A stretch of 64,000 nt of DNA from a virus. Its lineage: Duplodnaviria; Caudoviricetes. Below, one piece after another: positions 3,721 through 8,735 of this stretch. The translations under genes were made by a program, and so were the position numbers. The notes under the pieces were generated by a model that saw nothing but the letters and a program-made list of their open reading frames with translations, was not told the DNA's origin and ran no database searches. Position 1 is the first letter of the stretch. Every line of letters starts with the position of its first letter. The stretch covers positions 29,584-93,583 of the IMG/VR virus record IMGVR_UViG_3300032303_003166; one strand, given 5' to 3'.

Positions 3721-5220
3721 TTAACCTAAAATTCCTTTCTTAAGAAGATTTTCAAAGTCAAGCTTTTCAGTAAGACCTTTCTTTGAAGGCTTGCTGTTGT
3801 CAGGATAACCAGCGGGCTTTGAGGCTAGTGAGCTAGCACCAAGTGAATCAGCACCAGGCATTCCTTCCTGATTGTGCTTTACCTTATGACCGTCACCAGC
3901 TTCTTTTCCCCAAATAGCTCCTGATCCGTTCTGAGCACCCTTAACTTTCCAAGCCATTACTTCAGCTTCTCTCTTGCTCTTGGCAATCTTGGCCTTGATG
4001 GCTTCAACTTTCTTGCTGCGATCAGACTTGGTAGCTTCAGTCTTGGAAATAGTGTCATCATCTTCACCAATAAGACCAGCAACATTCAACCAGCCAACAT
4101 AAGGACCCTGGTTGTCAACATGCAAATCAGCCATGGGAGTAGAATCATCCTCGTTCATGCTCTTGCGAAGATTGGCAAGCTTCTCTCTGCGTGAGAGAAC
4201 TTTTTGGCGAACTGATTCAAGAATTTGATCAAGATCTTCATCTTCCATTTCGTCTTCAACAGCAGCACCAGCAAGCTGATCAGCTGCGCCCTGAAGAGCG
4301 TCAACAAGATCACCAACAGTGGCAGGCTCTGCAAGTCCCTTGCCCTCTTCGTCTTCCATATCTTCATCATCTTCCATGGCTTCCTCTTTGGAGGTTTCGC
4401 CCATCTCATGATCAGCAAGATCTTCTTCTTTAAGATTTCTAAGTTGAGCAATCTTTTCCTTGATGGCCTTGATACGAGCAGCCTTGCTCTCTGGCATAAT
4501 GGCAGCTTCAATATCAGCAGCAAATCCAACATCGCTCATTTCTTCATTAGGAACTTCTTGAGGAGCACCAGGCATCTTACCAGCTCCGGTAGGTCCTTCC
4601 ATTCCAATTGATCCATCTTCATTCTCAAACTGGCGCTTGAGGTTTCTCTTAAGAACGGCAAGTTGTACTCGGTCCTTGAGAGCAAGTTTCTTACCGGCCT
4701 TGGTGGCGCGGGCTTCTTTCAACATTAGAGCTTCGAGTAGATCTAGCTCTTGTTCTGTTAGTGTATTCATACTGTTTCCTCTATTTGATACTTTTTTATT
4801 CTTAGTTTTTGATTCTTTGATACCAAGCATTTCGTCAGAGTCTGCAAAAATTGAACTTGGCTCAGATCTATTAGGAATAAAGTTGCCCTTGTAATCGTTC
4901 AGAATTTGCTTTGCAACCTGCTCAGAGCAGTAGATATTTTGGTATCTTTCCCATTCTTCCATTGCTTGCTCAGAAAAAGTAATATCGTACAAAGAAGGCC
5001 AATCATTGTATTCTTCTTCAGGAACCTTTCTAAGTTTGCCTAAAATCTTTTCGTGGTCATTTTCGTCTAATTTAGCAACGGTAATAAATGACGAGATTTT
5101 CTTATGATCCCACCCAGAATCACTCTGATGATTATACTCAAAATAGTAGGTCTCATCGCCATCTCTAAAATAAGCTTCTTGTTGTGTTTTCATACTGTTT
5201 CCTTTGTTTGATTCATTCAT
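3721..5220 (-). CDS. acidic coiled-coil protein, putative prohead core/scaffold; additional starts likely at 5193 and 4770
   Basis: Very acidic and helical, with many [LIM]xE sites. ATGA coupling to the upstream gene at 5220. Duplicated RBS+ATG (AGGAAACAGTATGAA) at 5193 and 4770. Confidence 0.5.
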   Translation of the reverse strand: MNESNKGNSMKTQQEAYFRDGDETYYFEYNHQSDSGWDHKKISSFITVAKLDENDHEKILGKLRKVPEEEYNDWPSLYDITFSEQAMEEWERYQNIYCSEQVAKQILNDYKGNFIPNRSEPSSIFADSDEMLGIKESKTKNKKVSNRGNSMNTLTEQELDLLEALMLKEARATKAGKKLALKDRVQLAVLKRNLKRQFENEDGSIGMEGPTGAGKMPGAPQEVPNEEMSDVGFAADIEAAIMPESKAARIKAIKEKIAQLRNLKEEDLADHEMGETSKEEAMEDDEDMEDEEGKGLAEPATVGDLVDALQGAADQLAGAAVEDEMEDEDLDQILESVRQKVLSRREKLANLRKSMNEDDSTPMADLHVDNQGPYVGWLNVAGLIGEDDDTISKTEATKSDRSKKVEAIKAKIAKSKREAEVMAWKVKGAQNGSGAIWGKEAGDGHKVKHNQEGMPGADSLGASSLASKPAGYPDNSKPSKKGLTEKLDFENLLKKGILG

Positions 5221-5810: not shown

Positions 5811-5909
5811 TTAATATCCTTTATAAATTTTTTCGCATCTCAAAGCCAAGAGATTACTAGGCTTCTTTCCAAGACACTCATATTAATATATAGTTAGTTA
5901 TTAGACAAC

Positions 5910-5930
5910 AAAAGGACCCTCACGGGTCCT
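5910..5930 (-). terminator. intrinsic terminator of the transporter gene
   Basis: AGGACCC-GTGA-GGGTCCT followed by TTTG on the minus strand. Confidence 0.7.
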
Positions 5931-5976
5931 AATGTATTATACAAGTTACATTTAAGAGTTAACTGTAATTTATATG

Positions 5977-6558
5977 TTACAGTTGTACTTTTGTAAGTTT
6001 TTTTACTCCAACCAAAGATAAGTAATAAGCTCCAAAAAGAACAGCTGAATAAACAGTATCACTCATTATAGTATTCTTAAAGAAAGGAATTGCTGCCACA
6101 TAGCATTGCATTAAACCGTCCCATGTCATGGCGTACATGCTAGGCCATGCAGGAATTAAATTAATCCAGGTCACAAAATTAGATATGATAAAAAATGTTA
6201 ATGAAGCTGCAGGAATTGTTGCAAGAGTAACCAATGGATTCTTAGATTTATTCATGAAGCCATAAAGAATAATTGGTAAAAATGCCAAATATACCGCTGG
6301 GCTTCCTGAAAGATATTGATACACACTTAGGCCATATGTATTGGTTAGCGCAAGAATTACATCGCTAAGCGCCAGACCTGCAAAAGGTATAAACCATCGT
6401 GAATTTCCTGCTAGCATTGTTCCAGCAAAAAGAGCAATTGCGCCTATTGGAGAAAAGTTGTCTGCCACATGAAATATCCTGGCAACTATAGCCAGGAAAA
6501 TAAGAGATAAAGATATTACCACAGTCACATTGGACTGCTTAGAGAAAAATGATTGCAC
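5977..6558 (-). CDS. DUF6580-type membrane transporter (S-component-like, probably cobalamin)
   Basis: About six hydrophobic segments. NFSPIGAIALFAG and FFIISNF...MY...GL..CY.AAIPFFKNT..SD motifs. GGAGG lies 5 nt before the GTG at 6558; riboswitch upstream. Confidence 0.7.
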   Translation of the reverse strand: MQSFFSKQSNVTVVISLSLIFLAIVARIFHVADNFSPIGAIALFAGTMLAGNSRWFIPFAGLALSDVILALTNTYGLSVYQYLSGSPAVYLAFLPIILYGFMNKSKNPLVTLATIPAASLTFFIISNFVTWINLIPAWPSMYAMTWDGLMQCYVAAIPFFKNTIMSDTVYSAVLFGAYYLSLVGVKKLTKVQL

Positions 6559-6648
6559 GTCGACCTCCACATCGATTAGTGATTTTTCAGGTCTGACTTT
6601 TTATGACAGTCGGCGGAGGCCGGCGCTGAATTCCACAGCTTTCTGATT
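6559..6648 (-). promoter_or_regulatory. compact cobalamin riboswitch (class II-like)
   Basis: P3 TCAG/CTGA; GAAAG; P4 GCTG-TGGAATT-CAGC; P5 CGG-CCTCCG-CCG; P6 ACT/AGT; B12-box-like AGTCAGACCTG. P13 TCGA-TGTGGAGG-TCGA has a loop (the SD) complementary to L5 CCTCC. Confidence 0.85.
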
Positions 6649-6692
6649 AATAGTTAGTAAGCTACTATTTAGATAGGAATATAACATAAGCC

Positions 6693-8735
6693 ATGTCAGA
6701 CATTAAAATTGTTCAAAATACTTCAGTGATTCTTGATGATCTCATGGCCGGAGACATGTCCACTCTTTCCAGAGAGCAGCTTAAAAACTTTGATTTTAAT
6801 AAAATTCAACTGGCGCTAGACTATCTGGTAAATAATGAAAATCTTTCAGAGGCCAAAAAGCTTCACTATATTGGAAATTCTTGGAAAATCTTTTATAAGC
6901 GTAAACCACCAACTCCTGAAGAGTTTATGACTGAAGAGTGGATAGGTCCACTTGCAGAGCATACTTATCCACGAGTAAAACAAACATTCTTGGATTTTAT
7001 GAATCCTACAACGCCTTATCGCAATCTAATTCTATACCCGCATATGGGATGGGGAAAAACGTACGCTGCTATGTTTATGTCACTCTATTGTGATACGCAT
7101 ATTGCGTTAATGAGAAACGCTAAAAGATATCTAGGCTTGAACCCCGCATCTCCAATAGCCCGAGCATTTTTATCATTTTCAATTGAAAAAGTCCAAGAAA
7201 CGTTACTTGAGCCATTTCTTCTTGCTCTTGAAAATAGTCCAATGTATGAGAAGGTTCATACACGAGACGGCATGGCCAAAAGAGAAGCAGAACAAGCTCA
7301 TAACAATCAGATAGATAAAATATTCTGGACCACAGCTTCTCCTAGCTCTCATATTCACATATCCAATGGAACTCAAATTAAAATTGTTTCTAGCTTACAC
7401 AGACTTCTAGGTCTAAATCTGGTGGGTGGTGCAGTTACAGAGCTCTCTCACTTTAGAGAGGCCGGAATGACAGACGACTATATCATGGATACATTTTGGG
7501 AACTTAGAAACCGCGTTCAGGTTCGTACCATGAAAGGTAATTATTGGGGAAGAATTATCCTAGACTCGTCTCCTGATGATATAAGCGGAGCTGTTGATCA
7601 GTATATAAATGGTAACGCAAAAGAAGATCACACCAATATGATAGTACGTGGATCCATGTGGGAGTGGTCGCCAGAAAATCATGACATGAATAATTTATTT
7701 CCTATTTATAGAGGTGGAGCAGGGCGTCCTCCTCAAATACTAGAAGACTCAGAAATAAATAATTTTGATGTTAGTCAGGTTCTTTGGGTTCCTGGAGACT
7801 TAAAAAACTCATTTAAGAATAATCCAGTAAAATCCCTAAGAGACCTGGCTGGGCTACCATCTGGTAGTCAGGCTCGTTTATTTATGAATTATGAAAGCAT
7901 TGATAGCTGTTTTTCAACCAAATTAAAAAATCTTTATACCTATATTACTGCATCAACCAAAGATGATCCAAAAGATCTCATATGGAATAAAGTGCACTCT
8001 CAATTCTTTAAAAATGATGGGCTAAAAGTTTCTTTCTATTATAAGCCGCATCTTCCACGAGCAATACACATTGACTCTAGTACAACAGGAGACATAACTG
8101 GTATTGCAGCTACTCATGTGGAAAAGAATGCAGATACCGGTGAGATAATGTTTATAACTGACTTCAGTATTGCAATTGCTCCTGATGGAGGAAGAATAAG
8201 TCTTGATGCTGTAAAATTCTTTATTGAAGATTTAAGAAATAAAGGTCATATGAATATTGCTCAAGTCTCATATGACACATTTCAATCAGAGGCATCAGTT
8301 CAATATCTTGAAAGTCGTGGCTTTAATATTGCCAAGCTATCAGTAGACAGATCAACTGAACCGTATTATCACCTATACTCTATGGTAGAGTCTGGGAGAT
8401 TTAAGATGGGAAGAAACATATTCTTTAAGAATAATTTAAAATCTTTAGAAATTGTAAAAAGAAATAAAACAGGATCTCCTAAAGTAGATCATACCAACGG
8501 TCCAATACCTGATCCACATGGCGATTCTGCTTGGGAAACCAGCATTATTGGAATGAATGCAAAAGACGTATCTGACGCTGTATGCGGATCAGTATACGCA
8601 GCAAACATGATTTTGGCTCCACTAGGAGCTCCTGAGATCTGGAATGAAAGCCATGAAGGAATTCTTAGTAAAGATCTTGCAAAACAAAATTTGCAAGATT
8701 TTATGGACAAAATGGGAATAGGAATAGCTATGTAG
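6693..8735 (+). CDS. terL: terminase large subunit
   Basis: Walker A PHMGWGKT, Walker B-like AVTEL, coupling motif LDSSP, nuclease HIDSSTTGD and KDVSDA. Confidence 0.85.
   Translation: MSDIKIVQNTSVILDDLMAGDMSTLSREQLKNFDFNKIQLALDYLVNNENLSEAKKLHYIGNSWKIFYKRKPPTPEEFMTEEWIGPLAEHTYPRVKQTFLDFMNPTTPYRNLILYPHMGWGKTYAAMFMSLYCDTHIALMRNAKRYLGLNPASPIARAFLSFSIEKVQETLLEPFLLALENSPMYEKVHTRDGMAKREAEQAHNNQIDKIFWTTASPSSHIHISNGTQIKIVSSLHRLLGLNLVGGAVTELSHFREAGMTDDYIMDTFWELRNRVQVRTMKGNYWGRIILDSSPDDISGAVDQYINGNAKEDHTNMIVRGSMWEWSPENHDMNNLFPIYRGGAGRPPQILEDSEINNFDVSQVLWVPGDLKNSFKNNPVKSLRDLAGLPSGSQARLFMNYESIDSCFSTKLKNLYTYITASTKDDPKDLIWNKVHSQFFKNDGLKVSFYYKPHLPRAIHIDSSTTGDITGIAATHVEKNADTGEIMFITDFSIAIAPDGGRISLDAVKFFIEDLRNKGHMNIAQVSYDTFQSEASVQYLESRGFNIAKLSVDRSTEPYYHLYSMVESGRFKMGRNIFFKNNLKSLEIVKRNKTGSPKVDHTNGPIPDPHGDSAWETSIIGMNAKDVSDAVCGSVYAANMILAPLGAPEIWNESHEGILSKDLAKQNLQDFMDKMGIGIAM

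Follow-up and report, generated by a model that had tools for sequence, protein, structure and literature searches.

A putative miniaturised cobalamin riboswitch variant upstream of a probable BtuM-like importer gene in a phage genome fragment

The 64 kb window analysed here (positions 29584-93583 of the 93.6 kb viral record IMGVR_UViG_3300032303_003166, CheckV completeness ~31%) contains an RNA element that is likely to be a miniaturised cobalamin riboswitch of the class II type, resembling the Rfam family AdoCbl-II (AdoCbl, adenosylcobalamin) and controlling translation of a phage BtuM-like importer. It lies on the minus strand, in the 134 nt of intergenic sequence that separate a gene of the DUF6580 family from a divergent gene of 680 aa. 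An earlier note on this DNA had described a cobalamin-riboswitch core whose L5 loop is complementary to a GGAGG Shine-Dalgarno (SD) sequence in the loop of a P13 hairpin, 5 nt before a GTG start, followed by a DUF6580-type gene with its own terminator. Each of these sequence features is indeed present (Table 1). The wider proposal, a cobalamin-riboswitch core with an L5/anti-SD kissing loop before a putative B12 transporter, holds up in its fold, its covariation and its likeness to known aptamers, but it does not reach the gathering score of any Rfam model. Because it lacks P1 and has two shortened junction strands, we regard the element as a new variant of the cobalamin riboswitch rather than a scored family member. 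Neither cobalamin riboswitches nor their kissing-loop mechanism nor BtuM is new in itself; what is new here is an element with no P1, a P3 of 3-4 bp, short J3/4 and J6/3 strands and the SD placed directly in P13, which falls below all Rfam thresholds and covaries in four divergent phages. We also lean, if only slightly, towards the view that it represents a distinct natural subclass outside current models, in which a P1-less aptamer of ~60 nt would bind a corrinoid, gate the SD through L5 and be transcribed from a phage promoter that starts the RNA at the aptamer.

The evidence for the fold is comparative. Among 5.8 billion proteins, only three other protein clusters are close to the product of the downstream gene (P0002, P0003 and P0004, 54-63% identity), all of them on phage-like contigs, and the leaders of these relatives form the same helices from different sequences. 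Searches for additional members of this phage-type subfamily (IMG/VR by protein and by protein alignment; JGI metagenomes) returned only near-identical copies or homologs of ~30% identity, which leaves four distinct leaders for comparison: that of the window and those of the related loci L004, L006 and L007. A blastn search against INPHARED phages gave no match. We built a covariance model with the proposed structure from the window and L004 only (R1) and ran it over 322 kb of mixed loci. It found L006 at 79.9 bits (E 2.8e-13) and L007/L008 at 34.8 bits (E 2.7e-4), each match lying exactly upstream of the DUF6580 start and none elsewhere in the 322 kb.

Covariation was counted on a model-fitted alignment of the four distinct sequences (A5). 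A MAFFT alignment (A1) was dropped in its favour, as it held the 3' strands of P4 (in L007) and of P6 and P3 (in L006) one column off register. In A5, 98.6% of the cells in 18 pairs are paired; 10 of the 18 pairs changed on both sides, and one-sided changes are absent. None of 500 shuffles matched these pairing and covariation values, and pairing fell to 25-45% once the 3' partners were displaced by 1-3 columns. RNAalifold on its own predicts the same five helices and adds an extension of P13, in which CAC at 6581-6579 pairs with the GUG start. All four helices of the core, the P4, P5 and P6 hairpins and the P3 of only 3-4 bp that closes them, are present and covarying: P3 changes from A-U to G-C among the leaders, P5 appears as C-G, G-C and A-U across three lineages, and P6 changes from U-A to C-G in L006. 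In the P13 stem, 3 of 4 pairs changed on both sides in L007. The unpaired segments are conserved as well, with GAA in J3/4, the L4 loop and AC.GU..AGYC.GACC kept in all four leaders and aligning to the consensus, J3/4 and J6/3 each being ~2 nt shorter.

Likeness to known aptamers could be followed in both directions. In a permissive Rfam scan of positions 5900-6760 (861 nt), AdoCbl-II (RF01689) gave a sub-threshold match at 6654-6582 (17.5 bits against a cut-off of 36.5, E 0.57), and other, spurious families scored about the same in that scan. Compared with the AdoCbl-II consensus, P4, P5, P6 and the AAAAGUCAGA segment of the window align well, P3 is deleted and P1 aligns poorly. AdoCbl-II was also the top match of the L006 leader (17.4 bits, E 0.13, sub-threshold), and the L007 leader matched RF00174 at 10 bits, with GGAAUAGGGUGCGAAUCCCU...CCACUGUA in nearly letter-for-letter agreement with the consensus. 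A family of the cobalamin clan is among the best sub-threshold Rfam matches of each divergent leader (window, L006 and L007). Two near-identical records (G050 and G051) gave no AdoCbl-II match at E ≤ 0.05, and a permissive scan of seven related loci pooled together found nothing, because its search space was larger; the cobalamin matches came only from narrow scans. In the reverse direction, a covariance model of the phage-variant leaders (R2) matched the canonical AdoCbl-II aptamer in 8 of 8 canonical loci, in the correct place and on the correct strand (best E 0.04-0.14), over model positions 12-54, which correspond to P4 to P6. Applied to 80 bacterial DUF6580 loci, R2 gave five matches at E ≤ 1, all on cores of classic Cobalamin riboswitches; the three of these loci that were also scanned with Rfam all have RF00174 matches overlapping those of R2.

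The leader is also more conserved than the gene that it precedes. Between the window and L004, identity is 91% in the leader against 63% in the coding sequence (CDS) and 47% at third codon positions; the corresponding values for L006 are 78%, 59% and 35%. In L007 the third codon positions are 24% identical, the level of random sequence, and the fold is still kept. This pattern rules out both chance and a decaying relic. That a promoter and a ribosome-binding site (RBS) spacer merely happen to contain incidental hairpins would agree with the Rfam E of 0.57 and with the similar scores of spurious families, but it would leave the covariation of five helices, the leader-versus-CDS identity, the reciprocal model matches and the family-wide link to B12 switches (below) to coincidence. 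We consider such a chance resemblance highly improbable, and effectively refuted by the R1 and R2 matches, the covariation and the identity values.

In the window, CCUCCG of L5 can pair with UGGAGG of the P13 loop. The same contact is formed by CUCCUG and UAGGAG in L007, and by CCU(A)CCA and UGGAGG in L006. When these six L5-L13 pairs are scored as a pseudoknot, none is lost in any of the 4 distinct sequences; L007 has three double-sided changes and L006 one change from G-U to A-U, and pairing is 100% compared with 42-67% when the partners are slid. This layout is the same as that of the env8 class II riboswitch, where cobalamin has the four-way junction against one of its faces and the L5-L13 kissing loop against the opposite face; at physiological Mg2+ this kissing loop needs cobalamin to form, and once formed it masks the RBS in L13 (PMC5028336). 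The J1/13 linker of env8 is functional at 5-25 nt and does not tolerate G, and the phage linker, 11 nt long and free of G, is inside this working range (PMC5028336). From the shared layout and this linker we infer translational OFF control.

In the mechanism that we propose, the phage's TACTAANTA motif would serve as the promoter and the RNA would probably begin only a few nucleotides upstream of P3, hence without a P1. P4, P5 and P6 would radiate from a junction closed only by the 3-4 bp of P3, and a corrinoid held in this junction would stabilise the six-pair kissing contact between L5 and the P13 loop. The contact would bury the SD, and possibly the start codon too through the CAC/GUG extension, so that the importer is not made. 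At low B12 the contact would be transient, leaving the SD free in the P13 loop and the importer translated; the net effect would be negative feedback on the phage-encoded importer. Class II switches that lack a P6 extension prefer small upper ligands, hydroxocobalamin (HyCbl) or methylcobalamin (MeCbl), and because the phage element has no P6 extension either, the analogy suggests a preference for HyCbl or MeCbl.

The unconstrained minimum free energy (MFE) structure of positions 6556-6650 on the minus strand contains a 10-bp helix between CGGCCUCCGC (the 5' strand of P5 and L5) and GUGGAGGUCG (L13 and the 3' strand of P13). This helix is kept in L004 and, with one bulge, in L006; it is not kept in L007, where only the six kissing pairs stay. 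As folded, it may be an alternative, tighter OFF state.

Several observations weigh against a working cobalamin riboswitch. At gathering thresholds, Rfam gave no match in the whole window, and the gathering score of RF01689 (36.5 bits) is reached neither by the window (17.5 bits) nor by L006 (17.4 bits). An Rfam comparison by Infernal was the check that the earlier note had proposed for its reading, and the lack of a covariance-model match was among the outcomes that it named as refuting this reading; no model came up at gathering score, but we judge that the comparative evidence outweighs this result. A P1 enclosing the aptamer was not found, since the candidate pairs are weak, with 2 mismatches in 6, and one of them is broken in L004 without compensation. 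Next to AdoCbl-II, the phage element thus lacks P1 and is shorter in P3 (3-4 bp against 5 or more), in J3/4 (3 nt against ~5) and in J6/3 (2 nt against ~4). In solved class II structures, the J3/4 and J6/3 strands line the ligand pocket. The comparative set consists of four distinct sequences, most double changes come from the single lineage of L007, and the alignment was fitted to the model, so that the statistics overstate the number of independent events. The fold of the single sequence is unexceptional (z -1.5 to -1.75). With the 10-bp MFE helix, the SD could be closed off even when no ligand is bound, unless P5 and P13 fold during transcription and so keep this helix from forming. Finally, none of the profiles PF02867 (ribonucleotide reductase, classes I and II), PF02310 (B12-binding), PF01923 (cobalamin adenosyltransferase) and PF00593 (TonB-dependent receptors) has a match in the 93.6 kb record, which is ~31% complete; the controls of these searches were positive. 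The class II ribonucleotide reductase or other B12-dependent enzyme that the earlier note had suggested outside the window is therefore without a match in this record, from which about two thirds of the genome is missing. By the CheckV estimate, the whole genome would have ~300 kb.

Part of this evidence would fit a former riboswitch that has lost its ligand, in which the L5-SD pairing or the 10-bp helix is constitutive and either limits a potentially toxic membrane protein or couples its synthesis to temperature or to transcription kinetics. The loss of P1, the minimal P3, the shortening of both junction strands and the sub-threshold Rfam scores are all in line with such a history, as is the leader MFE structure, which already sequesters the SD in the 10-bp helix without ligand. 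A plain anti-SD hairpin, however, would not need covariation in P4, P6 and P3. The unpaired GAA of J3/4, the L4 loop and AC.GU...AG.C.GACC are kept while third codon positions are saturated, and the 10-bp extension is not kept in L007, where just the kissing pairs persist. We therefore hold the loss of ligand binding to be unlikely. A working riboswitch for another ligand, such as cobinamide, a cobamide with a different lower base or another tetrapyrrole, seems to us somewhat less likely again. The lengths of J3/4 and J6/3 differ from those of every canonical sequence seen here, and the junction is the part that touches the upper ligand and the corrin face in cobalamin switches (PMC5028336), but the downstream gene family and the neighbours of the relatives (a BtuB-like receptor, TonB and a cobalamin adenosyltransferase) point to cobalamin, and we found no positive evidence for an alternative ligand. 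A miniaturised cobalamin riboswitch thus remains the reading that we prefer.

The downstream protein matches PF20221, the DUF6580 family, at 136.3 bits (cut-off 27, E 1.5e-39) over profile positions 2-155 of 162. Its AlphaFold model (AF2; predicted local distance difference test score, pLDDT, 74.8) matches the six-helix fold of the S-components of energy-coupling factor (ECF) transporters. The closest fold is that of BtuM with cobalamin (8C7P), to which VIA-align gives Z 14.0 and a root-mean-square deviation of 3.3 Å over 166 of 179 residues, compared with Z 8-11.6 for other ECF S-components; Foldseek TM-scores to BtuM are 0.64-0.70. Structure-based identity to BtuM is 10-11%, and a search for sequence homology to BtuM_Td gave no phmmer or profile match to any PDB chain at E ≤ 10. 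Judged from the model, the window protein is BtuM-like in fold and context, yet outside the BtuM family, because the fold matches while similarity at the sequence level is absent. DUF6580 proteins have a nearly invariant Cys, C152 in the motif CYVAAIPF. BtuM itself is a solitary S-component-like B12 transporter whose Cys80 ligates cobalt (PMC6072759). The DUF6580 protein of the window is a probable B12 transporter.

A link between DUF6580 and B12 is also seen across the wider family. In 50 IMG/VR records with DUF6580 homologs of ~30% identity, AdoCbl-II matches of 58-85 bits stand directly upstream of the DUF6580 gene in 8 and RF00174 matches occur in 6, always within ~120 nt upstream of this gene. 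At least three of the viral records with AdoCbl-II matches (G032, G036 and G048) carry T4-type gp23 capsid genes (266-281 bits), which identifies them as real phages. Among 20 bacterial DUF6580 loci scanned with 500-nt flanks, RF00174 scored above its cut-off in 6, of which 3 have the match directly upstream and on the same strand. The closest cellular DUF6580 proteins, at ≤ 42% identity, are scattered over many phyla and give no clue to the host. The earlier note had called riboswitches uncommon in lytic phages. The literature agrees in describing them as rare in phages (PMC9004378); even so, 8 of the 50 viral records have a canonical AdoCbl-II switch before DUF6580. Our literature search found no paper on a phage cobalamin riboswitch and none that mentions DUF6580.

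Two further arrangements were seen in these samples. In the bacterial loci L131, L123 and L124, the DUF6580 gene is flanked directly by Cobalamin riboswitches on its upstream and its downstream side; DUF6580 alone would thus form one riboswitch unit, with a second B12-controlled unit behind it. In the viral loci L095-L101, a long conserved platform (AGUCCGCUGUCGAAUGAAGGCCUGGGAAAGUCUAGUUCUACAAUG...AACAGUGGC, ~70-100 nt) follows the AdoCbl-II aptamers; its CCUGG or CCAGG covaries with L5 (CCAGG or CCUG), and it is more complex than a simple P13.

Among the close relatives, L007 is a T4-like phage in which rIIA and rIIB are adjacent and a peptide deformylase gene is nearby. Its mini-riboswitch leader drives DUF6580, a TonB-dependent receptor and a TonB C-terminal domain protein (L007:4001-6705; also L109). 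The receptor has 584 aa, which is the size of BtuB, and aligns end to end, weakly, with the TonB-B12 model TIGR01779. Judged by its gene content, this would be a complete-looking B12 uptake operon. In the relative P0003, a second contig carries a PduO-type cobalamin adenosyltransferase gene 3 kb upstream. B12-dependent or B12-handling genes of the kinds searched were absent from the 15 kb around L007. The L007 leader is 257 nt long and contains two more strong hairpins upstream of the aptamer (~3847-3875 and ~3873-3895). L006 has a tmRNA model match at 2880-2990 (47.4 bits, E 8.5e-16), 1.2 kb downstream of its DUF6580 gene; only the tRNA-like ends are covered, and ~19 nt replace the 274-nt body of this miniature tmRNA-like gene.

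The position of the core relative to candidate promoters could explain why P1 is missing. The earlier note had named ACTAACT as a late-type motif from which one transcript could begin. This 7-mer is not itself enriched in the window (8 found, 11.3 expected), but the longer TACTAANTA is (10 found, 4.4 expected; reached by 0 of 100 shuffles), and it stands upstream of genes: although coding sequence takes up 94% of the window, 9 of the 10 copies fall between genes, with a start on the same strand 12-89 nt further on. The core thus sits just downstream of an over-represented promoter-like motif that leaves no room for P1. Transcription from this motif would start at P3 or only slightly ahead of it, which would account for the absent P1. 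The distance from the motif to P3 is 4 nt in the window and in L004 and 7 nt in L006, where the motif is the only candidate promoter in a 96-nt spacer. The 10 sites of TACTAANTA in the window include 15358+, 24393-, 36705+, 61028+ and 61008-. At several sites it starts only 12-13 nt before an ATG with no SD between them, which suggests leaderless or very short-leader mRNAs, or a transcription start unusually near the motif.

The second motif named by the earlier note, GTTATATT at 6678-6685, is likewise a real, over-represented one (16 found, 4.6 expected; 0 of 100 shuffles reach it), from which a longer RNA could be transcribed. Its copies mostly precede genes of the same strand, and GTTATATT is probably a promoter class different from TACTAANTA. 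Its sites include 9563-, 15340-, 55943- and 58140-; 13 of 16 are on the minus strand, often 14-27 nt before a start codon. In the extra 5' sequence of the longer GTTATATT RNA, no conserved partner for a P1 was found. A P1 formed by the 5' flank and the linker (UAGUAG/CACUA, placed by eye and from the MFE structure) was rejected, having an inconsistent placement in L004 and no such flank in L006.

The coordinates of the leader and of the gene that it precedes are collected in Table 1.

Table 1. Positions in the window of the riboswitch-like leader, its candidate promoters and the DUF6580 gene
Feature	Positions	Strand	Remarks
GTTATATT, extended -10-like promoter motif	6685-6678	-	16 copies vs 4.6 expected; longer transcript possible
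TACTAACTA, phage promoter-like motif	6659-6651	-	ends 4 nt before P3
ACTAACT	6658-6652	-	read from sequence
Aptamer core, 60 nt	6646-6587	-	sub-threshold AdoCbl-II match; covariation in all four helices; reciprocal R2 matches
P3, UCAG/CUGA	6646-6643 with 6590-6587	-	
J3/4, AAA	between P3 and P4	-	
P4, GCUG/CAGC, loop UGGAAUU	6639-6636 with 6628-6625 (P4/L4 6639-6625)	-	
P5, CGG/CCG	6622-6620 with 6613-6611 (P5/L5 6622-6611)	-	
L5, CCUCCG	6619-6614	-	
P6, CUG/CAG, loop UCAUAAAAAGU	6609-6607 with 6595-6593 (P6/L6 6609-6593)	-	
J6/3, AC	between P6 and P3 3' strand	-	
Linker AAAAUCACUAA, 11 nt, single-stranded, no G; J1/13 counterpart	6586-6576	-	read from sequence
P13 hairpin, UCGA/UCGA, loop UGUGGAGG	6575-6572 with 6563-6560	-	
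Shine-Dalgarno GGAGG in P13 loop	6568-6564	-	5 nt before GTG at 6558
DUF6580 gene, 193 aa from GTG	6558-5977	-	PF20221; probable inner-membrane B12 importer, ECF S-component fold
Intrinsic terminator of DUF6580 unit	5930-5913	-	7-bp stem, 5 G-C pairs, then TTTTGTTGT

P6/L6 includes AAGUCAGA, which resembles a B12 box, and a single C separates P13 from the GTG at 6558. The program-made list of open reading frames lets the DUF6580 frame begin further upstream, with the GTG at 6570 in the loop of P13; translation likely starts at 6558 and not at 6570, because the homologs have 193 aa and the SD spacing fits. No second copy of the element was found in the phage record. The divergent 680-aa gene starts at 6693 on the plus strand and shows a weak likeness to terminase large subunits (phrog_2699, E 2.8e-5). 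Just past the DUF6580 terminator, the 9-mer ACTAACTAT, which is CTAACTAT plus flank and also precedes the riboswitch, recurs at 5890-5898 (minus strand), 87 nt before the next gene. The 197-aa product of this gene (5810-5217) contains a C-terminal zinc ribbon as well as low-complexity stretches.

If the element is a distinct subclass, no smaller natural B12 aptamer would be known, and phages would adjust their import of B12 to the infected cell's B12 status. Should the RNA bind B12, a cobalamin aptamer could do without P1 and with as little as a closing helix of 3 bp and trimmed junction strands, which would mark its lower limit; such a minimal aptamer would be useful for structural work and for compact sensors. 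Regulated vitamin uptake would join the functions that phages bring along, by a BtuM-like importer alone here and together with its own outer-membrane receptor and TonB in a relative; control by a metabolite sensor would imply that B12 supply limits these infections. The genomic context supports DUF6580 as an unrecognised family of B12 importers, and the sub-threshold scores suggest that genuine riboswitch variants in viral sequence escape standard Rfam scans.

Among known systems, the element most resembles AdoCbl-II (RF01689; class II, formerly AdoCbl-variant), the family of the env8 HyCbl riboswitch (Johnson et al. 2012; Polaski et al. 2016, PMC5028336). Both have P4, P5 and P6 hairpins around a junction and lack a P6 extension. 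Of the core nucleotides, those of the L4 loop and of ...AC.GU(A)nAGUC.GA align to the consensus, L5 pairs with a downstream P13 loop that carries the SD at a linker length within the working range, and a B12 transport gene, here a putative one, follows. Apart from the missing P1 and the shorter P3 and junction strands, the phage RNA differs in that it probably starts at the aptamer, from a phage promoter. The canonical AdoCbl-II and DUF6580 units of marine T4-like phages in IMG/VR (L095-L102) are likewise phage-borne, with the same gene family and the same aptamer class, and their L5 is also complementary to a downstream loop (CCAGG/CCUGG or CCUG/CAGG). These units, however, have a full P1 and P3 (58-85 bits) and a long conserved platform of ~70-100 nt between aptamer and start codon, whereas the window has the SD directly in P13, and their proteins are only ~30% identical to that of the window.

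The importer itself is best compared with BtuM of Thiobacillus denitrificans (PDB 8C7P, 8OVV; PMC6072759), likewise a membrane protein of ~190 aa and its best structural match. BtuM genes stand beside BtuB-type receptors, as DUF6580 does in L007, but the window protein belongs to a different Pfam family and shares only 10-11% identity with BtuM. In its proposed logic, B12-dependent translational repression of an uptake gene through RBS occlusion, the phage leader would be analogous to the E. coli btuB leader (RF00174), which differs in having a class I aptamer with peripheral extensions, a length of ~200 nt and selectivity for AdoCbl.

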